A DNA stretch of 45,212 bases from Christensenellaceae bacterium (GCA_045133775.1 JBGUUU010000031.1:1-45212), one strand, 5' to 3'. Shown: positions 7,905 through 26,213, numbered from the stretch's first letter. A program made the numbers and translations. The notes: a model not told the origin generated them from the letters alone.

Positions 7905-7936
7905 GGCTATGTCACAAAGTATGACTGATTAAATTT

Positions 7937-8043: not shown

Positions 8044-8057
8044 ACAAAGTGAGTTTT

Positions 8058-8295: not shown

Positions 8296-8309
8296 ATTAA
8301 GTTGATATA

Positions 8310-8339: not shown

Positions 8340-8401
8340 GCGTGAAACGACATATTTTTTCATTTTTATTATAAAATAATAAGCCTAGTATTTTATCATT
8401 G

Positions 8402-8435
8402 TAAAAACAAGAAAACGCGACCTTTTGGGCCGCGT
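8402..8435 (-). terminator. Terminator of the pyr operon (after pyrB)
   Basis: Minus strand: ACGCGGCC-caaaa-GGTCGCGT followed by TTTCTTGTTTTT. Confidence 0.7.
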
Positions 8436-8442
8436 TTGTTTA

Positions 8443-10187: not shown

Positions 10188-10230
10188 TTTTATACTCCTA
10201 ATTTGTTTTAAAAACTTAATAGAAACCTTT

Positions 10231-10275
10231 AAAAAGGTTTAGAGATGCCGTATTGCGTGGTTTATAAGCCTTTTA
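10231..10275 (-). repeat. Internally deleted (~45 nt) derivative of the structured repeat, copy E
   Basis: Minus strand: TAAAAGGCTTATAAACCACGCAATACGGCATCTCTAAACCTTTTTA. It keeps both terminal arms only and starts in the pyrF TAA stop. Confidence 0.5.
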
Positions 10276-10971: not shown

Positions 10972-11882
10972 TATTTAACGCCTCCTATAACGTCGCTTAA
11001 TTTTTCAATTTTATATTTTGCCATTACGTTTGGCAAATCTTCTATAATTTGCTTGCTTGCATAAGGATTGATAAGGTTAGCCGCGCCAACTTCAACTGCC
11101 GTCGCGCCAGCAAGCATCATTTCGATTACGTCTTCTGCCGTTGAAACGCCACCCATACCGATAACAGGTATTTTTACTGCGTTTGCAACTTGATATACCA
11201 TACGAACAGCTACAGGGAAAATTGCAGGACCAGAAAAACCACCCATCTTGTTTGCGATAACAGGTTTTCTTGTTCTTAAATCAATTCTCATACCAAGCAA
11301 AGTGTTGATAAGGCTTACGCCGTCTGCACCGGCATCTTCAACTGCCTTTGCAATAGCCGTAATATCAGTTACGTTTGGCGAAAGTTTAGCGATAACCGGT
11401 TTATTGACCGACTTTTTAACTGCGCTTATAATTTCGTAAGCACCCTTTTCGCTTGAGCCAAAGTTTGTTCCGCCCGCGTGGACGTTAGGGCAACTTATGT
11501 TAATTTCAAGCCAACCAACTTGGTCTTCTTTATCTAAAAGGCTTGCCGTGTGAACGTATTCTTCAACTGAGAAACCACCCACGTTTGCCATTACTTTTTT
11601 GTTAAAGCACTTCTTTAATTTTGGAAGTTCTTCTGCGATTACTTTATCTACACCCGGGTTTTGAAGACCTACTGCATTTATCATACCTGCATAGCACTCT
11701 GCAATTCTTGGCGTTGGATTACCAAATCTTGGGTCTTTAGTAGTTCCCTTAAAAGAGAACGTTCCAAGGCAATTTATATCGTAAAATTCTGCAAACTCGT
11801 AGCCGTAGCCGAACGTTCCACTTGCAGGAATTATCGGGTTATCAATTTCAATACCACAAAGGTTTACTTTCATTTCTCCCAT
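10971..11882 (-). CDS. pyrD: Dihydroorotate dehydrogenase B, catalytic subunit
   Basis: 303 aa; [13 protein letters not shown], class 1B features; paired with pyrK. Confidence 0.9.
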
Positions 11883-12619
11883 ATAATTTCCTCCTTACAA
11901 AGAACAGGGCCGTCTTTACATATTCTCTTGTTGCCGTAAAGCGTTTTGCAAGAACAACCCATGCACGCGCCAAAGCCACAACCCATTCTCTCTTCAAAGC
12001 TGAATTGTCCACTAGTAGCGCTTGCATTATAAACTGCTTTAAGCATTGGTTCTGGCCCACAAGTAAAGAAATAACTATAGTCTACGCCTTGCATAGCGTT
12101 AGTTACAAAACCTTTTACCCCATACGAGCCGTCAACAGTTGTAACGGTAACGTTTGCGCCGAGTTTTTTAAACTCTTCTTCGTAAAAAACTTCATCTTTA
12201 GTATTAAAACCGAGTATAACCGAAACGGATTTACCCCCGTCTATAAGTCGTTTAGCGCATAAATACATAGGTGGAACACCTACGCCACCACCAATTAAAA
12301 GTGGCTTATCTCCACTTTGCGAAAGGTCGTAACCATTGCCAAGCTCGGTTAGAACGTCGAGCTTTTGTCCAACCTGCATTTGGGACATTTTTTCTGTGCC
12401 TTTACCAACGACTTTGTAAACGAGAGTGAGTTCATCTCCCACAATGTCGCATACGGAGATTGGACGGCGAAGATATAATCCATCGATTAAGATATTAACG
12501 AACTGACCGCACTTAATACCTGAAACGTCGCCTTTTAATTTCATTTCAAAAACGGTTTCGGTAAGACGGCGAGTTGAAGAAATTTCAAAAATAATTTGTT
12601 TCATTTTTATCCTTTGCAA
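11870..12619 (-). CDS. pyrK: Dihydroorotate dehydrogenase B, electron-transfer (FAD/2Fe-2S) subunit
   Basis: 249 aa; RRPISV flavin motif and C-terminal CGFGACMGC...C cluster. Confidence 0.9.
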   Translation of the reverse strand: MQRIKMKQIIFEISSTRRLTETVFEMKLKGDVSGIKCGQFVNILIDGLYLRRPISVCDIVGDELTLVYKVVGKGTEKMSQMQVGQKLDVLTELGNGYDLSQSGDKPLLIGGGVGVPPMYLCAKRLIDGGKSVSVILGFNTKDEVFYEEEFKKLGANVTVTTVDGSYGVKGFVTNAMQGVDYSYFFTCGPEPMLKAVYNASATSGQFSFEERMGCGFGACMGCSCKTLYGNKRICKDGPVLCKEEIIWEK

Positions 12620-12664
12620 CTAATCGTTGCATTCGTGTTGTTTACTCTTATCAAGTAAGTATTT

Positions 12665-12785
12665 AAAGGGTTAGATGCGAGCAAAAGAAGGCTCGCTTTG
12701 TGGCACAAGACACAATAGACCTTTGTGGTCATTGGGGTTTGGGGTACAAAGCAGAAACGCACTTTTGCGAAGTATATAAGCCTTT
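12665..12785 (-). repeat. Structured 121-nt interspersed repeat, copy C, inside the pyr operon between carB and pyrK
   Basis: AAAGGGTTAGATGC-GAGC-aaaagaag-GCTCGC-TTTGT...CAATAGACC-TTTGT-GGTCATTG...ACAAAGC...CGCA-cttt-TGCG...GTATATAAGCCTTT. TA flanks. Its terminal A completes the carB TAA stop (12786-12784). Confidence 0.75.
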
Positions 12786-15700
12786 AAGCGTCGATAGTAG
12801 AAATACAAAGCGTAGTTTCTTCTAATACGTCGAGAAGAACTTTTACAGTATCGAGCGACGTAAAGATTGTTACGTTAGACTCCGTTGCATATTTTCTAAT
12901 TTGGTATCCGTCTGATGCTGACGAAGGTGAACCTACACTGCTTGTGTTGATAACATACGCAATGTGACCTTGACGGATAGAATCAAAGATTTCTTCACTT
13001 TCTTCAATCTTTTTAAGAACGTGTGTTCTTATGCCGTTTTCTTTAAGGAATTTAGCCGTGCCTGCAGTAGCTTCAATATTAAAACCAAGGTTGTAGAAAC
13101 GACGGATAAGTGGAAGGGCTTCTTCTTTATCTTTATCTGCAATAGTTGCAAATACAGTTCCATAATTTTGAAGGTGCATGCCTGATGCTTGTAATGCTTT
13201 ATAAAGCGCACGGTTAAGTTTATCATCATAACCGATAGCTTCACCAGTTGACTTCATTTCAGGAGAAAGGTATGCGTCTAAGCCCCTAATCTTATTGAAT
13301 GAGAATACAGGAACTTTTACGTACCATCTTTGCTTTTCTTCTGGATATATATCGAAAATACCTTGTTCTTTTAATGTTTTACCCATAATAACTTCGGTAG
13401 CGATATCTGCTAAGCTATAACCCGTTGCTTTAGAAAGGAAAGGAACAGTTCTTGAAGAACGTGGGTTTACTTCGATAATATAAACTTTTTCATCTTTATC
13501 TACGATAAATTGAATATTGTAAAGACCTTTAATGCCTATGCCTACGCCAAGTTTTTTAGCATACTGCAAGATAATGCCTTTTACCTTGTTTGAAATACTG
13601 AACGTTGGGTATACGCTTATTGAGTCGCCCGAGTGAATACCCGTTCTTTCAACAAGCTCCATAATACCTGGAACAAATACATCTCTACCATCGCAAATTG
13701 CGTCGATTTCAACTTCTTTACCGATAATATATTTATCAACAAGTACTGGCTTATCTTCATCAATTTCAACGGCAGTTTTAAGATAATGTCTAAGTTGGTC
13801 TTCGTTTGAAACGATTTGCATTGCTCTACCACCTAAAACAAAGCTAGGTCTTACAAGAACAGGGTAACCAATTTTTGCAGCGGCAGCAACACCGTCTTCA
13901 ATCTTAGTAACTGCTCTACCTTCTGGCTGTGGAATGCCAAGGTCTTTTAAGAGTTTTTCAAATCTGTCACGGTTTTCTGCCTTGTCGATAGCATCGCAGT
14001 CCGTTCCAATAATTTCAACGCCCCTTCTCATAAGTGGCTCTGCTAAGTTAATTGCAGTTTGACCACCGAGAGATGCGATAACGCCTTGTGGGTTTTCAAA
14101 CTCAACGATGTTCATAACGTCTTCTGGAGTTAATGGCTCAAAGTAGAGTTTATCTGCAGTAGTATAGTCTGTAGAAACAGTTTCTGGGTTATTATTAATA
14201 ATGATTGCTTCATAGCCAGAGTTTTTGATAGTTTGAACTGCGTGAACTGTAGAATAGTCGAATTCTACGCCTTGACCAATTCTAATAGGACCTGCGCCTA
14301 ACACGACAGCCTTTTGCTTGTCGGTAAGAATAGATGCGTTTTCGCCTGTATATGAAGAATAGAAATAAGGAATATAAGCGCCACTATATAAGGTATCAAC
14401 CATCTTGAAGATAGGCTTAATATTGTTTTCTCTTCTTAAGTTGTAAACGTCAATTTCCTTCACACCCCAAAGTTTTGCGATATATGGATCAGAAAAACCA
14501 AGCTTTTTAGCATCAACAAGAGTTTTTAAATCGCCCTTGTTTGCTTTTAAGGTGTTTTCCATATCTACAACATTCTTAAAACTCTCTAAGAAAAGTTCTG
14601 TAATCTTAGTTACGTCGTGAATTTTAGCAATACTTTCGCCACGGCGTAAAAGTTCGGTAACGGCAAAGATATTATCCGACTTAAACTCCGTTAAATATTC
14701 GTAAAGCTCCTGTGTTGTATAGCTATCAAATTTAGCAAGATATAAATGGTTTACACCAATTTCGAGTGAACGAACAGACTTAAGTAAACACTCTTCAAGG
14801 TTAGAACCAATACCCATAACTTCACCCGTAGCCTTCATTTGAGTGCCGAGTTGGTTTGATGCAGACGTAAACTTATCAAATGGGAATCTTGGGAATTTTG
14901 CAACTATGTAATCAAGCCTTGGCTCGTGATCAGCTGTAGTGCCTGCAACTTGAATTTCATCTAAAGTCATACCTACTGCAATTTTAGCTGTAACTCTTGC
15001 AATAGGATATCCACTTGCCTTTGATGCAAGCGCTGAAGAACGAGAAACTCTTGGGTTTACTTCGATAAGGTAATATTCGCTAGTAGTTGGGTTTAATGCA
15101 AATTGAACGTTGCAACCACCTTCGATTTTGAGCTCTCTAATAATTTTGATAGCGCTATCGTTGAGCATCTTTAAATCCTTATCGCTGAGTGAAAGGATAG
15201 GAGCAACAACAACGGAGTCGCCTGTGTGAACGCCAACAGGGTCGATATTTTCCATACCACAAATCGTGATTGCCTTATCCGAGCTATCACGCATAACTTC
15301 AAACTCAATTTCCTTATAACCCTTTACGCTCTTTTCGATAAGAACTTGGTGAACAGGAGAAAGCTTAAACGCGTTAAGACCGATTTCGATAAGCTCTTTT
15401 TCGTTATAAGCAAATCCGCCGCCAGTTCCACCTAAGGTAAATGCAGGACGAAGAACGACAGGGTAACCGATTCTCTCTGCTGCAGCTTTAGCTTCTTCTA
15501 AGCTATAAGTGATTTCAGATGGAATTGTAGGCTCGCCGATTGATTGACAGAGCTCTTTGAACATTTCTCTATCTTCTGCTCTTTCGATACTTTCGCTACT
15601 TGTTCCTAAAAGTTCAACTCTACACTCTTTTAAAACACCCTTCTTTTCAAGTTGCATTGCAAGGTTAAGACCTGTTTGTCCACCGATACCGGGAACGATA

Positions 15701-15954
15701 GCGTCTGGTCTTTCATAGCGGAGAATCTTTGCAATATACTCAAGGGTTAAAGGCTCCATATAAACCTTATCTGCAATAGTGGTATCCGTCATTATAGTTG
15801 CAGGGTTTGAGTTTACGAGCACTACTTCGTAGCCTTCTTCTTTAAGGGCAAGACACGCTTGTGTGCCTGCGTAGTCGAACTCTGCCGCTTGACCTATAAC
15901 GATAGGACCTGAACCAATGATCAAAATCTTTTTTAAGTCTGTTCTCTTTGCCAT
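12784..15954 (-). CDS. carB: Carbamoyl-phosphate synthase large subunit
   Basis: 1056 aa; duplicated ATP-grasp halves and an MGS-like C-terminus; typical N-terminal KILIIGSGPIVIGQAAEFDYAGTQA. Confidence 0.95.
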   Translation of the reverse strand: MAKRTDLKKILIIGSGPIVIGQAAEFDYAGTQACLALKEEGYEVVLVNSNPATIMTDTTIADKVYMEPLTLEYIAKILRYERPDAIVPGIGGQTGLNLAMQLEKKGVLKECRVELLGTSSESIERAEDREMFKELCQSIGEPTIPSEITYSLEEAKAAAERIGYPVVLRPAFTLGGTGGGFAYNEKELIEIGLNAFKLSPVHQVLIEKSVKGYKEIEFEVMRDSSDKAITICGMENIDPVGVHTGDSVVVAPILSLSDKDLKMLNDSAIKIIRELKIEGGCNVQFALNPTTSEYYLIEVNPRVSRSSALASKASGYPIARVTAKIAVGMTLDEIQVAGTTADHEPRLDYIVAKFPRFPFDKFTSASNQLGTQMKATGEVMGIGSNLEECLLKSVRSLEIGVNHLYLAKFDSYTTQELYEYLTEFKSDNIFAVTELLRRGESIAKIHDVTKITELFLESFKNVVDMENTLKANKGDLKTLVDAKKLGFSDPYIAKLWGVKEIDVYNLRRENNIKPIFKMVDTLYSGAYIPYFYSSYTGENASILTDKQKAVVLGAGPIRIGQGVEFDYSTVHAVQTIKNSGYEAIIINNNPETVSTDYTTADKLYFEPLTPEDVMNIVEFENPQGVIASLGGQTAINLAEPLMRRGVEIIGTDCDAIDKAENRDRFEKLLKDLGIPQPEGRAVTKIEDGVAAAAKIGYPVLVRPSFVLGGRAMQIVSNEDQLRHYLKTAVEIDEDKPVLVDKYIIGKEVEIDAICDGRDVFVPGIMELVERTGIHSGDSISVYPTFSISNKVKGIILQYAKKLGVGIGIKGLYNIQFIVDKDEKVYIIEVNPRSSRTVPFLSKATGYSLADIATEVIMGKTLKEQGIFDIYPEEKQRWYVKVPVFSFNKIRGLDAYLSPEMKSTGEAIGYDDKLNRALYKALQASGMHLQNYGTVFATIADKDKEEALPLIRRFYNLGFNIEATAGTAKFLKENGIRTHVLKKIEESEEIFDSIRQGHIAYVINTSSVGSPSSASDGYQIRKYATESNVTIFTSLDTVKVLLDVLEETTLCISTIDA

Positions 15955-16013
15955 TTGTTTGCCTCCAATTTTATATCTGTAAAAATTTTATTTTTTAATT
16001 TAAGTGGCTTATA

Positions 16014-17231
16014 TCAAGCCTTTTTGTAAACGACCTTGCCGTCGCATACGGTTAAAAGGTTTACGCCGAAAAGCTTTTGCCCTTCAAAAGGAGTTGCCCT
16101 GCCTTTTGATAAAAACTCTTCTGGGTTTACCGTGAACTCTTCGTTTAAATCCCAAACGGAGAAATCTTTGCCGAGTGGAATATTAAATCTCTTTCTTGGG
16201 TTTATCGCAAGTAAATCAATAAGTTTTTCTAAAGTGATTATACCTGTTTTTACAAGCCCCGTATAACATACTGCAAACGCAGTTTCTATGCCAACTATAC
16301 CAAACGCGCTATTAGAAAGCCCCTTTGACTTTTCTTCTTTAGAGTGTGGCGCGTGGTCGGTTGCTATCATTTCTATAGTGCCGTCTTTTATTCCTTCGAT
16401 TAAAGCGAGCTTATCTTCTTTAGAGCGAAGTGGCGGATTCATTTTAAACTTGCCGTCTTCTTGCAAATCACTATCATCCATAACAAGGTAGTGTGGCGCA
16501 GTTTCGCAAGAAACGTTTAGCCCTTCTTTTTTAGCCTTTCTTATAAGCTCAACGCTTTCTTTAGTTGAGATGTGGCAAACGTGATAAGCGCAACCCGTCT
16601 TTTTAACAAGTTCTAAATCTCTTGCAATTTGCTCGTATTCACTAGCCGAACAAATACCTTTATGACCGTGTGCTTTTGCGTATTCGCCGTCGTGAATATA
16701 ACCACCCTTTAAAAGAGCGTTTACTTCGCAATGGGCTACTATCATTTTGCCGAGCGATTTGGCTTTAAGCATTGCCTTTTCCATCATCTCGTCAGACTGA
16801 ACGCCCCTTCCGTCGTCTGAAAAAGCGATTGCTATATCTTTCATACCATCCATATCAGAAAGTTCTTCGCCCTTTTGCCCAACCGTTATCGAGCCGTATG
16901 GATAAACGTGTATGCACGAAGTATTTTTAACAATATCCGTTTGAATAGAAATATTCTCTACGCTATCTGGCACGGGATTTAAATTTGGCATAGTGCAAAC
17001 TGCAGTATAACCACCCCTTGCAGATGCTTTTGAGCCCGTTTCTATACTCTCTTTATAAAAAAAACCCGGCTCACGAAAATGCACGTGCACGTCGCAAAAA
17101 CCGGGAATAACACACAAATTATCAATATTAGAAGACAATGCGCCGAAATCAAAAGAAAAACCCTTATAAGAATTAGCAATTCCCACAGAGCTTTGTCTAT
17201 TTACGGTAATAATGTCCTTTAACGCCTTCAT
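16014..17231 (-). CDS. pyrC: Dihydroorotase
   Basis: 405 aa; DVHVHFREPG metal-binding motif, ...TDHAPH. Confidence 0.9.
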   Translation of the reverse strand: MKALKDIITVNRQSSVGIANSYKGFSFDFGALSSNIDNLCVIPGFCDVHVHFREPGFFYKESIETGSKASARGGYTAVCTMPNLNPVPDSVENISIQTDIVKNTSCIHVYPYGSITVGQKGEELSDMDGMKDIAIAFSDDGRGVQSDEMMEKAMLKAKSLGKMIVAHCEVNALLKGGYIHDGEYAKAHGHKGICSASEYEQIARDLELVKKTGCAYHVCHISTKESVELIRKAKKEGLNVSCETAPHYLVMDDSDLQEDGKFKMNPPLRSKEDKLALIEGIKDGTIEMIATDHAPHSKEEKSKGLSNSAFGIVGIETAFAVCYTGLVKTGIITLEKLIDLLAINPRKRFNIPLGKDFSVWDLNEEFTVNPEEFLSKGRATPFEGQKLFGVNLLTVCDGKVVYKKA

Positions 17232-17273
17232 CCGTTCTCCTTAAAGTATAAAACTTTAAAAATAATTTTTATT

Positions 17274-17302
17274 ATTATAACAAAACAATTTTAACTTGTC
17301 AA
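17274..17302 (-). promoter_or_regulatory. Consensus sigma-A promoter of pyrC-carB-pyrKDFEB
   Basis: Minus strand: TTGACA (17302-17297), 17-nt spacer, TATAAT (17279-17274). The short 5' UTR has no attenuator hairpin. Confidence 0.65.
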
Positions 17303-17398
17303 TTATATATTTTATATATAAGACAAAAATTTTAGCCAACTTTTATATTTTTAAACTACAACCAGCTAGTAAATAACATAAAGCGCATACACTTGCAG

Positions 17399-17433
17399 TA
17401 AAAAAAGCCTTTGCGATAGACGCGCAAAGGCTT
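17399..17433 (-). terminator. Terminator ending the PRT-like gene plus repeat transcript
   Basis: Minus strand: AAGCCTTTGCG-cgtctat-CGCAAAGGCTT followed by TTTTTTT. Confidence 0.7.
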
Positions 17434-17477
17434 ATATAATATCAAATTTTGCTTTAAAAAAAATTTAGGTTAGGCTT

Positions 17478-17600
17478 AAAGGCTTAGATGCGAGTAAGAC
17501 GAGGCGTTTGCTTTTTAGAGGCAGGGAGCAACCTCTTTGGTCGCAGGAATGTTTATAAAAGGCAAAGTATTGCTTAGTGTTACACCGTGCTTTATTTTAT
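17478..17600 (-). repeat. Structured interspersed repeat, copy D1 (diverged distal end)
   Basis: AAAGGCTTAGATGCGAGTAAGACGAGG... and GCAACC-TCTTT-GGTCGC match the family. In tandem with D2. Confidence 0.55.
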
Positions 17601-17602
17601 TT

Positions 17603-17723
17603 AAAGGCTTAGATGCGAACAAAAGAAGGCTCGCTTTAAGGGATAAGACACAATAGACCTTGTTGGTCATTGGGGTTTAGACCTTAAAGCAGTAACACAC
17701 TTTTGTGAAGCATATAAGACTTT
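17603..17723 (-). repeat. Structured 121-nt interspersed repeat, copy D2
   Basis: Near-identical to copy C except for paired (compensatory) differences. TA flanks. Its terminal A completes the TAA stop (17724-17722) of the PRT-like gene. Confidence 0.75.
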
Positions 17724-18363
17724 AAAGTTTAGAATAGCCGTGGCTATTTACAAGCGCATCAATCTTTCTGCCTTGTTTACACATTGGACATTGGTGCGCC
17801 GGATAACTTGCATAGCCCTGCAAGTCCGTAGGGTCGAAAACTGAATGAACTTCATAACCAGAACACTCGTCAACGGTTGCGAAAATTGCGCTTACACCGG
17901 CAACGCTACCACCGTAATATTTTACAGCTTCTATCGCTGCGTTTGCAGTATAACCCGTTGTAACCGATGCAGACAAAATAAGCACGTTTTTGCCTTTTAC
18001 CGTTGGAATTATGTTATCTCTTAACAAAAGTTGGCTACCAGACGTATGCTCAGGAGTTATTACGTAAACGGTTTTATGCTCGTTCATGCTCATAAATCCA
18101 CCTTTTGTAAGCTCATCTGCAAGACAAGTGCCTACAACCTGCATACCGTCAAGACACAAAATAGTGTCGATTATAGTGCTTGTTCTATAAAATGAAACCA
18201 AAGTTGACGCGATTGCTCTTGCTTCAGAAAGCCTTGTTTTTTGCATTGTAACGTCAATATAGTAGTTTATATGGCTATGGCTCGTTGCAAAGTGACCTTC
18301 TGCTACGCGAAGGGTAAGATTTGAATTTTTTACTGCTACTTTTCTAACTTTTTCTACAGGCAT
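17722..18363 (-). CDS. Phosphoribosyltransferase-fold protein with a degenerate PRPP-binding loop (function unknown)
   Basis: 213 aa. PRT-type loop VLILSASVTTGYT, in which the usual acidic pair (DD/ED) is replaced by SA. C-terminal CPMC motif. Confidence 0.55.
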   Translation of the reverse strand: MPVEKVRKVAVKNSNLTLRVAEGHFATSHSHINYYIDVTMQKTRLSEARAIASTLVSFYRTSTIIDTILCLDGMQVVGTCLADELTKGGFMSMNEHKTVYVITPEHTSGSQLLLRDNIIPTVKGKNVLILSASVTTGYTANAAIEAVKYYGGSVAGVSAIFATVDECSGYEVHSVFDPTDLQGYASYPAHQCPMCKQGRKIDALVNSHGYSKL

Positions 18364-18454
18364 AAAAATACCCCTTTTTCTTTATGTTATCATATATGGA
18401 ATATTCTTGTCAATATCGTTTGCAAAATTTTGCTACTTTTATACCTTTTATGGT

Positions 18455-18485
18455 AAAAGCGACGCTTAAGTTAGCGTCGCTTTTT
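18455..18485. terminator. Bidirectional terminator after the ABC exporter genes
   Basis: GCGACGCT-taagtt-AGCGTCGC flanked by AAAA and TTTTT. Confidence 0.65.
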
Positions 18486-18486
18486 G

Positions 18487-20226
18487 CTACTTTTCGAATT
18501 GACTGTTATAAAGGGTATGATAAAATCCTTTCTTTTCTAAAAGCTCTTCGTGCGAGCCTTGCTCTATCACGTTACCGTCTTTCATAACGAGTATTTTATC
18601 TGCATTTTTAATAGTTGATAATCTGTGCGCTACGATAAATGAAGTTTTACCTTTCGTGAGCTCGTTGAACGCGCTTTGAATTTTCATTTCCGTCCTCGTG
18701 TCGATAGAAGACGTTGCTTCATCTAAAATAAGCATAGGTGGAAGGCAAAGCATAACCCTTGCAATACACAAAAGTTGTTTCTGCCCTTGCGACAAGCAGT
18801 TATCATCAATTACCGTATCGTAACCAAACGGCAATCTCTTTATAAAACTATGCGCGTGTGAACGCTTTGACGCGGTTATAATTTCTTCATCAGTTGCATC
18901 TTGCTTGCCAATGCAAATATTTTCTTTAACTGTTGCTTTTCTTATCCAAGTATCTTGTAACACCATGCCGTATTGAGCCCTAAGCTCTCGCCTAGAAATC
19001 GACGTTATATCTTGTCCGTCTACGCAAATTTTGCCCCTATCTATTTCATAAAACCGCATCAATAGGTTGATTAACGTTGTTTTTCCGCAACCAGTATGGC
19101 CAACAATGGCGATCTTTTGCCCTGCGCTAACGTCAAGGTTAAAACTGCTTATTAAAGGCTTATCTTTAGAATATGAAAAGTCTACGCCATCAGCGTTTAC
19201 GTTGCCGTCTATCGGCAAATTAAAGTGACTGTCTTTAGCATCAGTTTCTTCGTGCACTTCTAAAATATCAAACATTCTTTGGGCGCAAGCCGTCGCGCCG
19301 GAAAGCTCTGTCATAACCGAAGATATTTCATTAAACGGCTTTGTGTATCTATTAGCGTAGCTAAGTAGCGCCAAAATTGAGCCTGCCGTAACGGCAAACA
19401 CACCACTACCACCCTTTAGCGCAAGCAACGCGCCTGTAAGCGCAACTGAAGAATATACTAAAGAGTTTACAAATCTCGTAACTGGGTTTGTTAGCGAAGA
19501 GAAAAATACTGCTTTAAAAGACGTCTTTTTATACTCGTCGTTGACCTTTTCAAAATCCTTAACAAACTCATCTTCTTGCGCATACGCTTTTACGGTAGAT
19601 AAATTGCCTAACGTTTCTTCTATCATTGCAGTTTGTCTACCGGATATTTGCGACTGACCTTTGAAAAACTTATACGTTTTGCCTGTAATAAATTTTGCAA
19701 CGAAAAGCGAAATTGGGGTAATTACAACTACTACACCTGCAATGAGTGGGTTTAGCATAACCATAAATATAAGCGTGCCAACAATTGTTAAAAGCCCCGT
19801 GAAAAGCTTTGAAAAACCTAAGAGCAAGCCTTCTGCTATCTTATCTGCGTCGCCTATTTCTACGCTTAAAATATCGCCGACAGGTCGCTTATCAATATAA
19901 GAAAGTGGCACTCTTTGTAATTTGTTAAAGGTGTCTTTTCTAAGCCTTTTTACAACTCCGTTTGATATAATAGTGCATAAAATTTCGGTAAACCATTGCA
20001 TTAAACCTGCAATTAACGCGCATATAGACGCAGTTATGCCTATTTTAAGCACTCCGTCTAAGTCGACGTTGCCTTTAGATATAATCAAATCGGTAGCATT
20101 GCCGAAAAGTATAGGAAGATAAAGCTGAAACACAACGTAAATGCCTGCAGTTATTATAGAAAGAATAAAAGCAAAGCGATATTTACCAACGTAAGCCCAA
20201 AGTTTTTTTAACGCGCCCTTTTTCAT
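18487..20226 (-). CDS. ABC exporter fused permease/ATPase, consensus-site half of a heterodimer
   Basis: 579 aa. Six-TM N-terminal domain; Walker A GHTGCGKTT, signature LSQGQKQ, Walker B LILDEATS (catalytic Glu present). Confidence 0.85.
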   Translation of the reverse strand: MKKGALKKLWAYVGKYRFAFILSIITAGIYVVFQLYLPILFGNATDLIISKGNVDLDGVLKIGITASICALIAGLMQWFTEILCTIISNGVVKRLRKDTFNKLQRVPLSYIDKRPVGDILSVEIGDADKIAEGLLLGFSKLFTGLLTIVGTLIFMVMLNPLIAGVVVVITPISLFVAKFITGKTYKFFKGQSQISGRQTAMIEETLGNLSTVKAYAQEDEFVKDFEKVNDEYKKTSFKAVFFSSLTNPVTRFVNSLVYSSVALTGALLALKGGSGVFAVTAGSILALLSYANRYTKPFNEISSVMTELSGATACAQRMFDILEVHEETDAKDSHFNLPIDGNVNADGVDFSYSKDKPLISSFNLDVSAGQKIAIVGHTGCGKTTLINLLMRFYEIDRGKICVDGQDITSISRRELRAQYGMVLQDTWIRKATVKENICIGKQDATDEEIITASKRSHAHSFIKRLPFGYDTVIDDNCLSQGQKQLLCIARVMLCLPPMLILDEATSSIDTRTEMKIQSAFNELTKGKTSFIVAHRLSTIKNADKILVMKDGNVIEQGSHEELLEKKGFYHTLYNSQFEK

Positions 20227-21932
20227 ACTGCACCCCCTTTGCTTTGGGAGTCTTCTATTTCTCTATAGATTTCACAGCTATTATAAAGCTCGTCGTGAGC
20301 GCCTATACCAACAATCTCGCCGTCGTCTAACACGATAATCTTATCGGCATCTTTTATTGACGCCGTTCTTTGAGAAACGATTATCAACGTTTGATCGTGC
20401 TCTTGATTTTTAAGAGCTCGCCTTAAATTCAAGTCGGTTACGTAGTCAAGCGCGGATGAAGAGTCGTCTAAAATAAGAATTTCAGTTTTAGCAACTATTG
20501 CCCTTGCAAGAGAAAGCCTTTGTCTTTGTCCGCCAGAGAAATTTTTTCCACCTTGCTCTACAACAGAATCTAAACCGTTGTCTTTTGCCGATAACACGTC
20601 GTTTGCTTGCGCCGTGCTTATTGCAAAAGCCATATCTTCATCACTAGCAGTTGGGTTGCCCATTAAAAGATTGCTTTTTATAGTGCCTTTAAAAAGAGTT
20701 GGCTTTTGAAGAGCAATTGCAACCAAACTCTTTCTCTCATTTTGAGAAAGACCGTTTATGTCTTTTCCTTTTATATATATAGCGCCGTCACGACAGGTAT
20801 AAAGCCCCGCTAAAAGATTTACAACGGTTGTCTTTCCACTACCCGTGCCACCTATTATACCAACGGTTTGCCCCTTTTGTATTGTAAAGCTTACGTTAGT
20901 TAAAACGTCGCCACCGCCGTATGATGCGCAAACGTTTTTAAACTCGATAAACGGGCTATTTTCTTCATCTTTTAAAACGCTCTTTTCTTCAACTTGAATT
21001 TCAAGAGTTTGACTTATTCTCTTGCCTGACGCTATTGCCTTAGATATGCTTACAACAAGGTTTGCAAACTTAATAAGCTCTACTAAAATTTGCGATAAAT
21101 AGTCGTATAAGGCGATTATTGCGCCCTGAGTAAGTATACCAAGGCTTACCTTGATACCCCCGAAATACAAAAGGGCAACTATTGCAAGGTTTACAACGCA
21201 GAACGTCAAAGGGTTAAGCGCGGCAGATATTTTGCCCGTCGCATTTTGGAATTTTTCAAGGGCTTCAACTCTCTTTTTATATCCTGCAATTTCAGTATCT
21301 TCAACGCCAAAAGCCCTAACAACTCTTGCGCCTGTTAAATTTTCTCTAGCAGTTAAAGAAACGCCGTCGAGCATCTGTTGTGCCTTGGAAAATTTAGACA
21401 TTGTAATCGCCATAATTAAGACTACAATCAAAGCTAAAATAGCAATTGCTAGAACAAAAATAAGGGCTATTTTTATGTTTATTAAAAGCGCAGCTACAAA
21501 CGCGCCGACAACTACGAAAGGTGAACGGAGCAAAAGTCTTAGCGCAAGGTTGACACCACTTTGCACCTTGCCGACGTCGCTAGTCATAGTAGTTATCATT
21601 TTGGCCGTTCCAACTTCATCAGTTTTAGAAAGTGGAAGGCTTACAAGTTTATTGTAAAGCGCGCCCCTTAAATCTGACGAATAGCCTACCGCAGCCTTTG
21701 CCGAGAAAAACTGCCCTGCAAGCGAAAACGCCAAGCCAAGCACACCCAAGGCAACCATTAAAGCTACGTCTAAAATTATTACGTTTTTATTTGCCCCGTT
21801 TATACCCCTGTCTATAATATCGGCAACGAGCAAAGGAATAAATAATTCCAATAGAGCTTCGGCAAGCTTTAATAAGGGCGCTAAAACACACTCTTTTTTG
21901 TATGCCGAAAAATATGAGAAAATCTTTTTCAT
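20223..21932 (-). CDS. ABC exporter fused permease/ATPase, degenerate-site half of a heterodimer
   Basis: 569 aa. Walker A GGTGSGKTT, signature FSGGQRQR, Walker B ILILDDSSS (Asp in place of the catalytic Glu). ATGA overlap with the partner gene. Confidence 0.85.
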   Translation of the reverse strand: MKKIFSYFSAYKKECVLAPLLKLAEALLELFIPLLVADIIDRGINGANKNVIILDVALMVALGVLGLAFSLAGQFFSAKAAVGYSSDLRGALYNKLVSLPLSKTDEVGTAKMITTMTSDVGKVQSGVNLALRLLLRSPFVVVGAFVAALLINIKIALIFVLAIAILALIVVLIMAITMSKFSKAQQMLDGVSLTARENLTGARVVRAFGVEDTEIAGYKKRVEALEKFQNATGKISAALNPLTFCVVNLAIVALLYFGGIKVSLGILTQGAIIALYDYLSQILVELIKFANLVVSISKAIASGKRISQTLEIQVEEKSVLKDEENSPFIEFKNVCASYGGGDVLTNVSFTIQKGQTVGIIGGTGSGKTTVVNLLAGLYTCRDGAIYIKGKDINGLSQNERKSLVAIALQKPTLFKGTIKSNLLMGNPTASDEDMAFAISTAQANDVLSAKDNGLDSVVEQGGKNFSGGQRQRLSLARAIVAKTEILILDDSSSALDYVTDLNLRRALKNQEHDQTLIIVSQRTASIKDADKIIVLDDGEIVGIGAHDELYNSCEIYREIEDSQSKGGAV

Positions 21933-21937
21933 TTATC

Positions 21938-23353
21938 TTAACCGTTTAAAATTTGCTTTGCCTTTGTTTTTAACGCGTTTGCTTTAGAAGTGTCAATTCC
22001 GTCAAAATATGGGTATATGTCTGCCCAACCAACTCTTGTTATCAATGATATAAAGCTTTCGTTTGCAATCATACCAGAAGTTAAAGCAACAAACTCTTGC
22101 CCTTTGCCAAGCGACTTCTCGCCAAAGCTTAAAACGTTGGCAATTTTTATAAGGGCTTTATTTGCATAATTATTGCACTCCATAGAGTATTCTTCTGCTA
22201 ACTTTTGACTGTTTTGAGCCTCAAATATATCAATTATCGGCTTATAGGCAGACTTTTTATATCTATTCCACATATTTGAGCCAAGATTTTTTATAAGCGA
22301 TTCCGTTTCAGCAAGAAGAATTTGACCTTCTTTTTGAGCCTTTGCAAGCACGCCGTTCATATACTCAACTGCTTCTAATTTTTCAGATGCTTTTTCTGCA
22401 ATCTTTACTGCCTTTGACCTTAAAATTTCTGCTAAAGCATATCTAACTTCAAAGTTATCAGAGCTAAGGTCAGTCTTTTCAACTTCACCGTTTTCTATCT
22501 TTTCGCCACTTTTTAATTCTTCAAATCTGTTGTAAATTTTATAAAATCTTATATATTCTGCAGCAGCTTGTGGGTATTGAACGTATTGTGAAACGAATTG
22601 CTCCGTAACTTCAATTTTCAATCTTTCGTATTCACGAATTGCAGTTGACAAATCTTCCCAACCCCTTGGCGTTACAAAATAGAAACCGCTTGCAGACCTT
22701 TCTGCCTTAAATAAATATTGGTTATTAAGGGACAAGAACGATATTACTGAATCGTGAATTCCATTATTGTAGGCATAAGTTTTAAAAGCGTCGTAATCTG
22801 GTTCTACGACAATCTTTTTAACACGGTCTAACGTAACCATATCAAGCTCGTTTACAGATTTGTTGTATTCTTCAGGGTTACCTGCGGCAGTTAAAATCCA
22901 ACCGTCTGGTATTTTGTGCGGGCCAAACTTCTTTCTCTGCAAAAGCTCAAGCATTGCAGGGGCAAGCGTTTCTGAAACGCAGTTGATTTCGTCGATAAAG
23001 AGAATACCTTCCTTTTTGCCTTGCTTTTCAATAGCTTCGTAAACAGATGCTACGATTTCGCTCATAGTATATTCTGTAACAGAATACGTTTTTCCACCGT
23101 ATTCCTTTTGCGCAATAAACGGAAGACCTATTGCAGACTGACGTGTATGGTGGGTTATCGTATAACCGATATAACCAATATTGAGTTCGCTTGCAATACT
23201 GCTCATTATAGCAGTTTTACCAATACCTGGCGCGCCTATCAAAAACACAGGGCGCTGTCTTTCTTCTGGGATTACGTAATCGCCGTTTTCATCCTTTTCA
23301 AGGTATATTCTTATTGCTGATTTTATCTCGTTTTTAGCTTCTAAAATATTCAT
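21938..23353 (-). CDS. AAA+ ATPase, AAA_5/MoxR-CbbQ-like, with a ~200-aa helical C-terminal extension
   Basis: Walker A GAPGIGKT, Walker B ILFIDEIN, sensor region TAAGNPEEYN...LDRV. Sits 2 nt downstream of the vWA gene. Confidence 0.7.
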   Translation of the reverse strand: MNILEAKNEIKSAIRIYLEKDENGDYVIPEERQRPVFLIGAPGIGKTAIMSSIASELNIGYIGYTITHHTRQSAIGLPFIAQKEYGGKTYSVTEYTMSEIVASVYEAIEKQGKKEGILFIDEINCVSETLAPAMLELLQRKKFGPHKIPDGWILTAAGNPEEYNKSVNELDMVTLDRVKKIVVEPDYDAFKTYAYNNGIHDSVISFLSLNNQYLFKAERSASGFYFVTPRGWEDLSTAIREYERLKIEVTEQFVSQYVQYPQAAAEYIRFYKIYNRFEELKSGEKIENGEVEKTDLSSDNFEVRYALAEILRSKAVKIAEKASEKLEAVEYMNGVLAKAQKEGQILLAETESLIKNLGSNMWNRYKKSAYKPIIDIFEAQNSQKLAEEYSMECNNYANKALIKIANVLSFGEKSLGKGQEFVALTSGMIANESFISLITRVGWADIYPYFDGIDTSKANALKTKAKQILNG

Positions 23354-23355
23354 AA

Positions 23356-24648
23356 TTATTCCTCTATATTAACTCTATAAGCAAAGTGTGGGACGTTAAC
23401 TCCCTCATTTTCTCCTAAAATTGCAAAGCACGTTTTAAACGGTGGTGTTTCTCTTGGATAAATACCAACGCCGTCGGTAAAATAAATAAGCGCTTCTATC
23501 TTCTCTCCCTTTTTCTTTAAATGTGAAAGGTATTCAAACACAGGGCGAAAATCTGTTCCACCGCCACCTTGCAACCTATAATCTTTTAGCATTTCGGCAA
23601 ACTCTTCAGCAGATACGACAACGTCTTCTCGCTGAATTTTTAAATCGCATTGAATTATTCTTAGCCTATACTTTTTATTCTCGGTTTCCATACTCTTTAA
23701 AAGAGAATAAACTTCTTTCAAAAGCCTTTTTATAGGCTCGCCGTCTGTGCTGCCTGACGTATCGACTGCAATTACGATATCTGAATAATCTCTCTTGTCG
23801 CTATACTCAAGATTTTCAACTAGTGGCACGTTGCCGTAGGTTTGCAAGCCTAAACAATAATATATATAATCAAACTCTTCATCGCTAGGCTTTATTATCT
23901 CTCTTCTTCGTAAAAAACTCTTAAGAAGTGATTTATAGTTACTAGCTTCGCCAACCGCCACAGATATAATTCTTTTTAAATTTGGATTGAGTTTTCCAAT
24001 TCTAGGGTAAAGGTTTTTTGCAACGGCGCTCCATACGGCGTTCATCTCATCCAAGTCTACTTCATCTTGCATATCGCCAAAGGCAATATTTACGTCGCTT
24101 TGCGACTCATCTTCTTGCCCTGCGCTTTCTCTACCGTGCCAAACGCTATGCTCACAAACCTTAAACACAGCATTGAGCTCTTCTATTTTTTCTTTTTTAA
24201 GCGCCTTGCAATACTCAAAGCAAAACGATTCGTTTATATTGCCAAAAAGGTCAATAATCGCCTTATAAGCCGATTTTCTAACTTCTTTTGAGCTTCTATC
24301 CCCGTGTGAGTAACCCAAATCGTCAAGCACGAATCCTACTAAAATATCACACGCTAGGTCATACGCTTTTTCGTTATCTACCCTTTTAAACGGATGCAAA
24401 AAGATGCAATGCAACAAGGTGTGAAGTATAACTGCTTCAACGTGTTTTACACCCTTTTCGGCAGTCACTTTAACGACGTCTAGTTCGTTTAAAACTGCCA
24501 CTTTTCCGTTTGTAAAAGCTAAACCATCTATCTTACTAGCCTTATAATCTAGCAAGCCCAAGGGGTAAGCAAGGTAGAAAAACTCTGAGCTTAATTCCTT
24601 TAACGCATGCGCTAAAATCTCGTTAGAGAGCTCGGTTATCTTATCCAT
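23356..24648 (-). CDS. DUF2201-type protein: N-terminal metallopeptidase-like domain (HTLLH in place of HExxH) plus C-terminal vWA domain
   Basis: ILHTLLHCIFLHPF at aa 74-87. MIDAS DTSGS at aa 296-300. GGGGTDF and FTDG motifs typical of the DUF2201 vWA-like domain. Confidence 0.65.
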   Translation of the reverse strand: MDKITELSNEILAHALKELSSEFFYLAYPLGLLDYKASKIDGLAFTNGKVAVLNELDVVKVTAEKGVKHVEAVILHTLLHCIFLHPFKRVDNEKAYDLACDILVGFVLDDLGYSHGDRSSKEVRKSAYKAIIDLFGNINESFCFEYCKALKKEKIEELNAVFKVCEHSVWHGRESAGQEDESQSDVNIAFGDMQDEVDLDEMNAVWSAVAKNLYPRIGKLNPNLKRIISVAVGEASNYKSLLKSFLRRREIIKPSDEEFDYIYYCLGLQTYGNVPLVENLEYSDKRDYSDIVIAVDTSGSTDGEPIKRLLKEVYSLLKSMETENKKYRLRIIQCDLKIQREDVVVSAEEFAEMLKDYRLQGGGGTDFRPVFEYLSHLKKKGEKIEALIYFTDGVGIYPRETPPFKTCFAILGENEGVNVPHFAYRVNIEE

Positions 24649-26009
24649 AATCTCTTCTCCCTTATAACGTCAGCATCGTTTTTAAGCTCTTCGCTAAGCC
24701 TATCGTAAACAGACTCATCAGACCTAACTGCGTTTACTGCAATCTCTTTTATTTTCTTAAACTCTTCGCTCAAATAAAAATAATTCCTACCGTCACGCCT
24801 ACAAGCTATAATTGCTTGCTCGTAGGTTAAATTTATATTCAAGCCGTCTAAAATTGCGCCGTCTGCAAGCTTTACGATATAACTTTCTAAGCAAGCCGTA
24901 ACGAACTCTCGCTTATTTATATAATCAGTATTTTTAACAACCTTTAATATAGTGCCATCTGCCTGCGCTGCAAGCATCATAACTTCTTCATCATTTAAAT
25001 ATTGAGCGTAATTTTCTTTAAACCTTGCCATTGCAGTAGGCGATTTGCGCCTTAATGACCTTACAAGATAAAGCCTTGCGTTTTTATCGTCAACGTCTTT
25101 TGCGCCAACGCCACGAGTTGCCTTTAAAAGTAACGGCAACACCCTAACCTTTCTGTTTTCTGAAGCAAATTTTACTTCCGCTAAAATTGCGTTATGTGGA
25201 AAACTGTATTTTTCTATTATAAGACCAACCATTTCTACGTCTTCTAAAAGCACGTATTTTCTAAGCAAGTCCGCCTTTTTGAGCATATTACCTTCGCCAC
25301 ATTTAAGACAAACTAAAAGCTTATCTCTATCTAAAGTTGAAAAATCTAAATTTTGAGCCGAAAAGCTAAAGGTTAAACCCCTTCTTTCGATTTCATCAAA
25401 CACGCCTTGCGGAGTGTTATTTGTGAGCGATACAATTCTAAATCGCCCACCGATAGGCGCTATAACCTTTTCAAAAATAGCCTTGCTTTTAAACGCGTCG
25501 TCCGAAGCGTATATAAGCGCAGTTCTATCTCTATTTGCAGCCTGCAAAACAACAGACTCTAAAGAGCGAACTCTACTAGAAAAATACTTGAGCGCTTTAG
25601 GATTGCGCGTTACTGCTATTTTTGCAATATACTCATCATCTAAAAAGCTCTCGTCTAAAAGCTCGATAGTTTCGCCACCGCGTTTTGCAACTGCTTCGGC
25701 TACAAGAACACTCTTTTTAGCCCTGCCGTGAGCAAAAGCAAAGCTAGCGCAAAAGTTCTCTACAGCACTTAAAACCACCGTTTCGTTCTCTCTAAGTTCA
25801 TCATCCAAAAAGCGCAAAGCCCTACCGTCGGATTTTACGCACGCAAGAGCAACGTCCACGTCTTTTTTAAGCTCTTCACTAGCAATAAGATAAAGGGAAG
25901 GATTTCGCTTTACAACGGCTAAAGTAATCTCCTTATCGGCCTGCAACTGCTTGTCAAGCTCGTATCTTTCAGTTAAATAATTCAGTTGTCGTATACTAAG
26001 ATTGTCCAT
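24636..26009 (-). CDS. DUF4116-repeat protein
   Basis: 457 aa with recurring units of the form AV..n..aL.y.s.eLk.D.e.v..A, for example LAVVKRNPSLYLIASEELKKDVDVALACVKSDGRALRFLDDELRENETVVLSAV and IAVNAVRSDESVYDRLSEELKNDADV. Its stop overlaps the vWA gene start by 13 nt. Confidence 0.55.
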   Translation of the reverse strand: MDNLSIRQLNYLTERYELDKQLQADKEITLAVVKRNPSLYLIASEELKKDVDVALACVKSDGRALRFLDDELRENETVVLSAVENFCASFAFAHGRAKKSVLVAEAVAKRGGETIELLDESFLDDEYIAKIAVTRNPKALKYFSSRVRSLESVVLQAANRDRTALIYASDDAFKSKAIFEKVIAPIGGRFRIVSLTNNTPQGVFDEIERRGLTFSFSAQNLDFSTLDRDKLLVCLKCGEGNMLKKADLLRKYVLLEDVEMVGLIIEKYSFPHNAILAEVKFASENRKVRVLPLLLKATRGVGAKDVDDKNARLYLVRSLRRKSPTAMARFKENYAQYLNDEEVMMLAAQADGTILKVVKNTDYINKREFVTACLESYIVKLADGAILDGLNINLTYEQAIIACRRDGRNYFYLSEEFKKIKEIAVNAVRSDESVYDRLSEELKNDADVIREKRLWIR

Positions 26010-26099
26010 ATTTCACCAAAAGTCGCATTGCTTGCAAACAACCGACAAAACGTTAGACTATTTATAGTCTAAAAGCTTAGGATTTTTTTGTTACCTATT

Positions 26100-26128
26100 A
26101 TTATAACAAATTCTCGCCTATCTTTCTA
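26100..26128 (-). promoter_or_regulatory. Candidate promoter of the DUF4116-vWA-AAA-ABC operon
   Basis: Minus strand: TAGAAA, 17-nt spacer, extended -10 TGtTATAAT (26108-26100). The 5' UTR contains the palindrome TTAGACTAT-TT-ATAGTCTAA (26053-26072). Confidence 0.4.
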
Positions 26129-26175: not shown

Positions 26176-26213
26176 TTAAAAAAGCGTGAGCAAACTTTTG
26201 TTTTCTCACGCTT
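26176..26213 (-). terminator. Terminator after rluD
   Basis: Minus strand: AAGCGTGAG-N14-CTCACGCTT followed by TTTTTAATG. Confidence 0.6.

Follow-up and report, generated by a model that had tools for sequence, protein, structure and literature searches.

Five minus-strand open reading frames (ORFs) at positions 18487-26009 of a 45,212-nt stretch of DNA from an uncultured gut member of the Clostridia (Christensenellaceae bacterium) form a tightly packed operon; the whole stretch is called the window below. The five genes encode a DUF4116 repeat protein, a protein with a zincin-like domain and a von Willebrand factor A (vWA) domain, an AAA+ ATPase and the two chains of an ABC exporter. The operon is genuine, conserved and uncharacterised, and no striking new principle is demonstrated by it. 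Three of its features were not found described: a His3-Cys site that lacks the Glu of zincin peptidases, solenoid partners that are interchangeable between lineages, and the clade-specific weld to an exporter. The analysis shows gene structure, domains, motifs, conservation, partner swapping, a gene fusion and evolutionary rates; the formation of a ring, a physical complex, a single transcript and the identity of the client are inferred. Tentatively, and with less than even confidence, we read the operon as a cytoplasmic MoxR-AAA+/vWA remodelling machine of three parts, in which a solenoid may be the specificity subunit and which may serve a housekeeping function linked to the exporter.

Organization of the operon

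The genes, and the sites that border them, are located in the window as follows.

26100-26128, minus strand, candidate sigma-70-type promoter, TAGAAA-17-TGtTATAAT, with an extended -10 (10 of 12 matches, TG present)
26010-26099, minus strand, 5' leader of about 90 nt between the promoter and gene 1
24636-26009, minus strand, gene 1, predicted DUF4116 alpha-solenoid protein, 457 aa
23356-24648, minus strand, gene 2, zincin-like/vWA protein and putative adaptor, 430 aa
21938-23353, minus strand, gene 3, predicted MoxR-class AAA+ ATPase, 471 aa
20223-21932, minus strand, gene 4 (ABC1), half-transporter with a degenerate nucleotide-binding domain (NBD), 569 aa
18487-20226, minus strand, gene 5 (ABC2), half-transporter with a predicted catalytic NBD, 579 aa
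18455-18484, terminator-like hairpin of 12 bp with 6 GC pairs and A and T runs on its flanks, 2 nt past the stop codon of gene 5

A preliminary description of the window had given the coordinates of the five genes and the sizes of their four junctions, and all of these were reproduced exactly when the ORFs were rechecked: genes 1 and 2 overlap by 13 nt, gaps of 2 nt and then 5 nt separate genes 2, 3 and 4, and genes 4 and 5 overlap by 4 nt. The single candidate promoter before the block and the single terminator after it, which had also been proposed, were both located at the sites listed. In most of the related lineages examined, an extended -10 element (TGnTATAAT followed by an A/T-rich ATAG-type motif) likewise precedes the DUF4116 gene. 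The rluD-like gene upstream of the operon has its own terminator, a hairpin with a T-run at about 26177-26213, and the gene downstream has a separate promoter. The GC content (0.37-0.40) and the GC skew run on unbroken into the flanks, and there is no sign that the operon region is an island.

The leader holds a perfect 20-nt palindrome, TTAGACTATAAATAGTCTAA, at 26053-26072. Since L001, the closest relative, has it in degraded form and the other relatives do not have it, it is probably not a shared operator. An Rfam search of the leader gave no family at the gathering threshold and, at E <= 1, just terminator-like noise; neither this search nor the comparison with relatives revealed a metal-sensing riboswitch or a recognisable metalloregulator site there.

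Conservation of the five-gene block

The gene-neighbourhood comparison shows that the block is not merely a matter of adjacency in one genome, as had to be considered when it was first described. The close homologs are all found in metagenome-assembled genomes (MAGs) of uncultured Clostridia, and the order DUF4116-vWA-AAA-ABC1-ABC2 recurs in at least 10 diverged lineages, the window included. The five-gene loci, with the identity of their vWA protein to that of the window, are as follows.

L001 and L002, 66%
L011, 57%
L003, L004 and L012, about 43%
L146, 41%
L144, 40%
L145, 39%
L006, 38-41%
L013, 35-37%

At least five flank contexts were found, namely RluD/phosphoribosyltransferase-like, HU with DAHP or DHQ synthase, PCC/PfkB, FeoAAB/VEG and patatin/VWA_4; the flanks of L001 and L002 are those of the window. 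Because the order recurs in at least 10 lineages with different flanks, the five-gene arrangement goes beyond chance. In most lineages the AAA-ABC1 junction is a 4-nt overlap or a gap of a few nucleotides, and the apparent gap and the short ABC1 of L144 are due to a scaffold gap (a run of N). In the same locus, a second vWA protein (VWA_4, 470 aa, 14134-15546) follows directly after the ABC pair.

All five proteins diverge in parallel, and ABC1 and ABC2 are 55-81% identical across the loci. Between the window and L001, the flanking housekeeping proteins are 80-91% identical, the AAA protein 89%, the ABC chains 77% and 81%, and the DUF4116 and vWA proteins both 66%; thus, no genes in the neighbourhood evolve faster than genes 1 and 2, which change in step.

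One locus, L005, departs from this pattern. Apart from two deletions, it is collinear with L145, a five-gene locus with which it shares about 75% nucleotide identity. The first removed about 150 C-terminal codons of the DUF4116 gene and produced an in-frame fusion to the vWA gene, so that in the resulting protein (P0062) residues 3-295 of DUF4116 are joined via a short linker to a complete vWA protein. The second, of about 3.4 kb, removed ABC1 and nearly all of ABC2, of which about 90 nt remain at the 3' end. The fusion supports a physical complex between the DUF4116 and vWA proteins. The double loss can be read in two ways, either that the module may persist without the exporter, or that the C-terminal DUF4116 repeats and the exporter may be functionally linked. 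Both the fusion and the deletion are seen in a single MAG contig and should be taken with caution.

The zincin-like/vWA protein

The domain calls of the preliminary description, DUF4116 (PF13475), DUF2201 (PF09967), AAA_5 (PF07728) and the ABC pair, were borne out by Pfam. The gene 2 protein matches PF09967 (DUF2201, vWA-like) with an E value of 1.3e-15. PF13203 (DUF2201_N) had been predicted as well; it gave no match at E <= 0.01 in the protein of the window, but it was found in 16 of the 20 homologs in our alignment of gene 2 proteins (A1), the best at 1.7e-15. The main sites of the protein are listed below.

24394-24423, minus strand, H76-T-L-L-H80-C-I-F-L-H85, aligned with the zincin HExxH position, Thr replacing Glu
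23803-23880, minus strand, conserved stretch at residues 257-282, EEFDYIYYCLGLQTYGNVPLVENLEY, with invariant columns in A1
23749-23763, minus strand, metal ion-dependent adhesion site (MIDAS) motif D296-T-S298-G-S300, invariant in A1
23548-23568, minus strand, segment containing MIDAS residue T365, invariant in A1
23470-23484, minus strand, segment containing MIDAS residue D392, invariant in A1

We assign the His motif to the zincin HExxH site because phage homologs align HELMHvvykH and HELLHvansH at this position. The spacing H76-x3-H80-x4-H85 is near-invariant in A1, and HxxxHxxxxH is kept by 252 of 265 chromosomal Clostridial homologs. Of these 252, only four have Glu after the first His, a position mostly taken by T, M, S, L, V or I, and in 196 the second His is followed by Cys. 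The catalytic Glu of HExxH that marks a zincin metallopeptidase is thus missing from the gene 2 protein (HTLLH), and since it is lost, the N-domain is very probably a pseudo-peptidase and not a protease. Binding of a metal or a peptide may nevertheless be retained.

The MIDAS of the vWA domain is complete (DxSxS, Thr and Asp), DxSxS being present in all 252 motif-bearing homologs. In the AlphaFold2 (AF2) model, the predicted local distance difference test (pLDDT) score is 78 overall and 87-96 in the N-domain. The fold matches in PDB are vWA and integrin I domains; for the full-length protein they are dominated by the vWA domain, and the kinship of the N-domain is drawn from the homologs and from BFVD, in which both domains match phage 'VWA-like/metallopeptidase' proteins at E values of about 1e-16. 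A PDB sequence search with the vWA profile gave no match.

The most conserved part of the protein is the stretch at residues 257-282, which lies directly before strand 1 of the vWA domain; the linker around it is modelled with low confidence (pLDDT < 50 at 249-264 and 272-286). In NorQ-NorD, the vWA domain inserts a finger into the AAA pore, and a linker of NorD that is essential for function is remodelled by the ring (PMC13036017). By analogy, the linker at 257-282 is the prime candidate for an element that might be acted on by the ATPase or might engage the AAA ring or a partner.

The AAA+ ATPase

The gene 3 protein matches Pfam AAA_5 (PF07728) with 33.8 bits, where the cut-off is 22, and an E value of 4e-8, which is weak in absolute terms; it also passes the generic AAA model PF00004. 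Its nucleotide-binding motifs are as follows.

23213-23236, minus strand, Walker A GAPGIGKT, residues 40-47
22988-23005, minus strand, Walker B ILFIDE, residues 117-122

Walker A and B, the sensor-1 residue Asn159 and Arg177 (the Arg finger) are invariant in 25 homologs (alignment A2). The C-terminal helical extension of about 190 aa (about residues 280-471) is specific to the family. The AF2 model (pLDDT 81) has NorQ and NorQD (9qh4, 9qhd and others) as the top Foldseek matches in PDB, followed by dynein AAA modules and CbbQ2 (6l1q), with TM-scores on the target of 0.5-0.58. A phmmer search of PDB sequences found no MoxR member and gave marginal matches to generic AAA proteins (YjoB, 0.0069; ClpB; VCP). 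The protein thus is MoxR-like by modelled fold and by Pfam AAA_5, and because the PDB sequence search yields no MoxR protein, we place it on a distant branch of the class.

The DUF4116 solenoid

The gene 1 protein matches Pfam PF13475 (DUF4116) in five stretches, with an E value of 1.6e-34 and 117.6 bits against a cut-off of 24.9. The repeat units lie at residues 25-73, 76-121, 125-171, 315-358 and 397-442. Three and a half units form the N-terminal part (25-195) and two to three the C-terminal part, and between them is a non-repeat core of about 120 aa (about 196-314), with conserved motifs that include NxTPxGxF and RKxRVLPxLL. DUF4116 was earlier modelled as an alpha-solenoid (PMC8078820). 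Collinear orthologs of gene 1 were found in eight loci. The protein had no match in a PDB sequence search, and a word-indexed search with it gave 31 matches, nearly all from this clade, and no additional fusions. No signal peptide or membrane segment was seen in the sequences of genes 1-3, and the three proteins are therefore presumably cytoplasmic.

The ABC exporter

Genes 4 and 5, which overlap by 4 nt, each encode Pfam ABC_membrane and ABC_tran domains; with 569 and 579 aa, both chains consist of the two core domains, and Pfam found no N-terminal C39 peptidase or accessory domain in either. The preliminary description had called the pair a heterodimeric exporter with a degenerate site, and the motifs do show this asymmetry. 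The diagnostic ones are listed here.

20460-20480, minus strand, ABC1 Walker B ILILDD, with Asp for the catalytic Glu
20367-20378, minus strand, ABC1 switch loop VSQR, with Gln for His
18781-18795, minus strand, ABC2 non-canonical signature LSQGQ (LS[QA]GQ in orthologs)

ABC1 has in addition the Walker A motif GGTGSGKT and a canonical signature, FSGGQ, and ABC2 has intact MLILDE and VAHR. The asymmetry is kept in all six orthologs checked, and from these motifs the exporter is predicted to be a heterodimer with one degenerate and one consensus ATP site. NCBIfam gave MsbA-like matches to the exporter, all far below the cut-offs, and no match for genes 1-3. With ABC1 as the query, metagenome contigs yielded exporter pairs that are 42-52% identical and have no module upstream (L093-L099). 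Because of these standalone relatives, and because the exporter is present at chance level in the wider family described below, we regard it as a member of a generic family that was recruited once, in the DUF4116 clade.

Distribution of the family and interchangeable partners

The vWA-AAA pair is far more widespread than the five-gene block. Among representative clusters at 50% identity, the profile of A1 matched 16,183 with E <= 1e-3 and 1,382 with E <= 1e-30, and with one genome per GTDB species the family is found in at least 592 species-level genomes of Clostridia. Among the matches listed, there are hosts from Lachnospiraceae, Oscillospiraceae and Anaerovoracaceae, as well as Blautia species in culture. 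Cultured organisms that carry the LRR_5 type described below or the pair without a third gene include [Clostridium] polysaccharolyticum DSM 1801 (L085), Lachnospiraceae bacterium FE2018 (L037), Clostridiales bacterium NK3B98 (L076) and Blautia species (L015, L053 and L080). Of 86 distinct loci, about 80 have the vWA and AAA genes side by side. Where a third gene is present, it lies upstream of the pair, between its members or downstream, and it is always contiguous. In about 53 of the 80 loci it encodes an LRR_5 (BspA-type) protein (32 copies upstream, 11 between and 17 downstream), in L062 an ankyrin-repeat protein, and, in L011-L013 only, a DUF4116 protein; in about 23, several from Blautia included, it is unrecognisable. 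Since LRR_5 and ankyrin proteins take the third place elsewhere, DUF4116 is one of several interchangeable solenoid partners. Unbiased clustering of the neighbouring ORFs revealed no further strongly enriched family.

The LRR_5 partners (L022-L059 and others) are about 300 aa long, with a conserved central motif that resembles FPEFFEEAVENTPAR and a conserved tail in which a Lys/Arg run is followed by Phe/Tyr, Glu/Asp and Leu at the C-terminus; the DUF4116 partners do not have this tail. Such a tail could serve to dock the partner at the MIDAS of the vWA protein or at the AAA pore. A docking domain common to the two kinds of partner was also considered. The hhalign comparison of DUF4116 residues 246-299 with the C-region of the LRR proteins gave P = 0.005 and a probability of 7%, and homology was not accepted. 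In L068 (about 4200-10900) and L088 (about 11200-20000), four to five LRR_5 paralogs stand in tandem between the vWA and AAA genes, which looks like a local expansion of the solenoid partner.

As to the transporters, the co-occurrence of DUF4116 and exporter with DUF2201, which the preliminary description had proposed to measure, holds in the DUF4116 clade and fails in the wider family of LRR_5 and ankyrin partners. About five of 80 loci have an exporter pair of this type no more than 9 kb away, as its abundance predicts, and 23 of 86 have small ABC ATPases no more than 10 kb away, roughly what chance would give for so abundant a family. Judged from these neighbourhoods, the link to the exporter appears confined to the DUF4116 clade. 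MATE genes were found near 14 of the 86 loci, five of them directly upstream of the vWA gene on the same strand and within 400 nt (L044, L049, L056, L071 and L080) and nine more within 7 kb. This may be a weak enrichment and a second link to efflux, or it may be shared synteny, as the loci are possibly not independent. FeoAB genes are nearby only in L005/L145 (one lineage, adjoining) and L009/L010, and their presence is not general.

Relatives in phages

Homologs of the pair also occur in phages. The PHROG search gave phrog_1297 (E 1e-44) and phrog_1314 (E 2.7e-33), and tblastn found matches in 106 phage records. The genuine phage homologs are 22-26% identical, and they keep HExxH, as in gp33 of Acinetobacter phage Presley (N4 gp25-like, HELMHvvykH) and in the homolog of Bacillus phage Internexus (HELLHvansH), which is annotated as 'zincin-like protease fused to vWA'. 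The phage pair, found in N4 gp25-like, jumbo phage and PBS1 relatives, has the same two-gene make-up, DUF2201_N and DUF2201 (phrog_1314 and phrog_1297). Whereas the phage proteins have HExxHxxxxH, the chromosomal Clostridial branch has H[T/M/S/L/V]xxHCxxxH, and the two phage loci inspected (Presley and Internexus) have no annotated solenoid partner or ABC exporter. A pair of AAA protein and metallopeptidase-vWA protein was noted previously in jumbo phages, and a role in virion assembly was proposed (Iyer et al. 2021, PMC7824862).

Records named 'Bacteriophage sp.', with identities of 27-32%, were considered as further cases of phage carriage and were rejected, since MT835935.1 ('UNVERIFIED: Bacteriophage sp.', human faeces) is a fragment of a bacterial chromosome, with the LRR_5, vWA and AAA genes amid those for a Mur ligase, DegV, a peptidase M18 and an aminotransferase. 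This verdict is drawn from MT835935.1, one of a set of similarly labelled records that also includes MT836813.1 (L142 and L143). The zincin-vWA family of phages carries the label 'HNH endonuclease' in PHROGs (phrog_1314) and in several RefSeq records (NC_023581.1, Presley_33; NC_023719.1, gp576). Because the alignment shows HExxH and a vWA domain with MIDAS, this label looks like a propagated mis-annotation.

Proposed function and alternative explanations

A full-text literature search found no functional study of either the DUF2201 or the DUF4116 family, in agreement with the earlier statement that the operon has no assigned function. We propose the following scheme. The gene 3 protein would form a MoxR-class AAA+ ring, as its fold and its intact Walker A and B, sensor-1 and Arg finger suggest. 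The gene 2 protein would be the adaptor, whose vWA/MIDAS domain and invariant linker would couple the ring and the client by analogy with NorQ-NorD, and whose dead-zincin N-domain would be a metal- or peptide-binding module and not a protease. The DUF4116 solenoid of gene 1 would bind the adaptor and set the specificity for the client, as LRR_5 and ankyrin proteins may do in other Clostridia. In the DUF4116 clade, the client would most likely be the ABC exporter itself or something handed to it, for assembly, activation or loading. The exporter would be the most economical client because the block survived at least five rearrangements of its flanks, and because L005 lost the exporter together with the C-terminal repeats. 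The whole unit would then have a stably inherited housekeeping function and would not be a mobile defence system.

Several observations weigh against this scheme. The occurrence of exporter pairs near the loci of the wider family is no more than their abundance predicts, the exporter pairs that are 42-52% identical have no module beside them, and in L005 the vWA and AAA genes are intact although the ABC pair has been cleanly deleted. Furthermore, the gene 3 protein has no sequence-level match to solved MoxR proteins and its TM-scores are moderate, the AF2 models were built on shallow alignments of 20-25 sequences, and the complex, the co-transcription and the effect on the exporter rest on comparative genomics and models. 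The main alternative is that the exporter is a passenger, an ordinary multidrug- or lipid-type pair that is co-transcribed without a mechanistic link, and that the module serves another client. The standalone relatives and the retention of the module in L005 fit this explanation, as do the generic, sub-threshold MsbA-like matches, which are all that NCBIfam yields, and the at least 53 loci of the LRR_5 type and those with the pair only, where exporters do not exceed the chance level. However, a passenger would hardly be expected to stay in a block that outlasts at least five changes of flank, with a tight AAA-ABC1 junction in most lineages, and the coincidence of exporter loss with loss of the C-terminal DUF4116 repeats in L005 would be odd if the two were unrelated. 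We consider it somewhat unlikely that the exporter is such a passenger.

A metallochaperone is a more specific variant of the remodelling machine proposed here: the His3-Cys site would carry a metal, the AAA ring would insert it into the client, and the exporter would handle the metal or a chelate. Known MoxR-vWA pairs often insert metals (PMC13036017, PMC9976466), and NorQD, CobST and BchID provide the precedent. The three near-invariant His, the Cys in 196 of 252 homologs and the loss of the Glu are consistent with this function, and FeoAB adjoins the block in L145 and L005 and is near the pair in L009. However, the His residues are possibly kept for the stability of the fold alone, the adjacency of FeoAB is seen in just two independent lineages, and neither a metal riboswitch or metalloregulator site in the leader nor a candidate metalloenzyme client nearby was found, which makes metal delivery by the operon rather improbable.

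A role in conflict or defence, in which the solenoid would sense a molecule of the invader and the AAA/vWA pair would trigger a response, has also to be considered. The vWA-MoxR ternary conflict systems comprise four classes, with VMAP, iSTAND, FtsH or a beta-propeller as the third part (Kaur et al. 2020, PMC7159879). A variable third component, the tandem arrays of four to five LRR_5 genes in L068 and L088, the evolution of the DUF4116 and vWA proteins at about three times the rate of their neighbours, and the homologs of the pair that phages carry would all suit such a role. However, Pfam detected none of the four third components in the operon and no further domains in genes 1-3 that could be effectors, and the peptidase is inactivated. 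The PADLOC-DB 2.0 scan, which had been recommended, revealed no defence system at the operon; its matches were of the generic P-loop and ABC type (IetA, 0.002; mad3 via the ABC NBD). In addition, the bpMoxR model scored 19.5 bits against a cut-off of 27, and the vWA domain is C-terminal, so that membership in the four classes can be ruled out from the third component, the lack of effectors, the position of the vWA domain and the sub-threshold score. The locus is present in one copy, is orthologous and syntenic in a setting of housekeeping genes, and has no mobile elements next to it; the hosts are unicellular gut Clostridia, in contrast to the multicellular taxa favoured by ternary systems. 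Defence is a little less probable still than metal delivery. As for descent from a phage, the operon could be a domesticated or remnant assembly module, since N4-like and jumbo phages bear the same pair and the PHROG, tblastn and full-length BFVD fold matches agree with this. However, the identity to genuine phage proteins is just 22-26%, no phage genes stand beside any of about 100 loci examined, and the chromosomal branch is vertically conserved and has its own signature, with the Glu lost and the Cys gained. A present-day function of this kind is largely refuted and, in our view, highly improbable.

A broader generalization of the remodelling-machine scheme, which we regard as doubtful, is that MoxR-type machines with a dead zincin-vWA adaptor and swappable solenoids form a large undescribed class in gut Clostridia, and that the machine of the DUF4116 clade is dedicated to the exporter via the C-terminal repeats. 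If this is true, we know of no earlier case in which an AAA+/vWA system chaperones or regulates an ABC transporter. Few MoxR-vWA pairs have known clients, and they belong to the AAA+ machines that are least understood. A swappable solenoid partner would offer a way to study how client specificity arises, the Glu-less His3-Cys site gives a clear biochemical hypothesis, and the exporter weld and the L005 variant point to a concrete candidate client. Should the link to the exporter be real, a class of transporters that is important in drug efflux in Firmicutes would gain a new level of control or assembly. The family is widespread in gut Clostridia and is experimentally approachable.

Other features of the window

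A 213-aa protein (17722-18363, minus strand) is encoded directly downstream of the operon, with its own promoter, in both the window and L001. It has a phosphoribosyltransferase-like motif, VLILSASVTTGYT, and its 90%-identical ortholog in L001 has no Pfam match on record. Next to it, a non-coding stretch of 490 nt (17232-17721, minus strand) lies upstream of the dihydroorotase gene; within it are a promoter of perfect consensus (TTGACA-17-TG-TATAAT, 17302-17274) and a hairpin that resembles a terminator (17433-17405). Rfam gave no family at its gathering score for this stretch, which may be a pyrimidine attenuator. Farther away, a ZMP/ZTP riboswitch match (8204-8297, minus strand; 46.2 bits against a gathering score of 39) lies downstream of a pyrB-like gene (8443-9531, minus strand) and in convergent orientation to a NadE-like gene whose end is at 7859. 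It is followed by no minus-strand ORF of at least 90 aa and looks like an orphan or oddly placed riboswitch.

Comparison with known systems

The preliminary description had likened the operon to the three-part vWA-MoxR systems. The logic of a variable partner stands, since an AAA+/vWA core with a variable third protein is common to the systems of the Kaur type and the operon; the operon belongs, however, to none of the four published conflict classes and has no defence signature.

The Bat aerotolerance operon of Bacteroides encodes a MoxR protein, a DUF58 protein, the vWA proteins BatA and BatB and the tetratricopeptide repeat (TPR) proteins BatC and BatE. It thus resembles the operon described here in that a MoxR-type ATPase, vWA proteins and solenoid (TPR) proteins are encoded in one operon of a gut anaerobe, and the structure of the BatB vWA domain (3ibs) and the related 4jdu are among the fold matches of the gene 2 protein (ranks 6 and 12). 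In contrast, the Bat vWA proteins are membrane-anchored and have no zincin-like domain, the Bat solenoids are of another type, no ABC exporter is present, and the DUF58 gene has no counterpart here.

The exporter itself resembles the heterodimeric exporters with one degenerate ATP site, such as TM287/288, LmrCD, BmrCD, EfrCD and PatAB. As in the TM287/288 type, the half-transporter genes overlap, one chain has the Walker B Asp and the switch Gln, and the other has the odd signature. We know of no described exporter of this kind that is co-transcribed with an AAA+/vWA/solenoid module.

Unlike the known MoxR/vWA pairs, the operon has no gene for a client enzyme (nitric oxide reductase, Rubisco or Frd) nearby, and it has a Glu-less zincin-like N-domain, an ATPase extension of about 190 aa and a solenoid subunit that looks obligatory. 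The operon nevertheless resembles these pairs in architecture: in NorQ-NorD, CbbQ-CbbO and RavA-ViaA, as here, the gene for an AAA_5-type ATPase adjoins that for a vWA protein with a complete MIDAS, and the gene 2 protein resembles NorD in its order of N-terminal target-side domain, linker and vWA domain.

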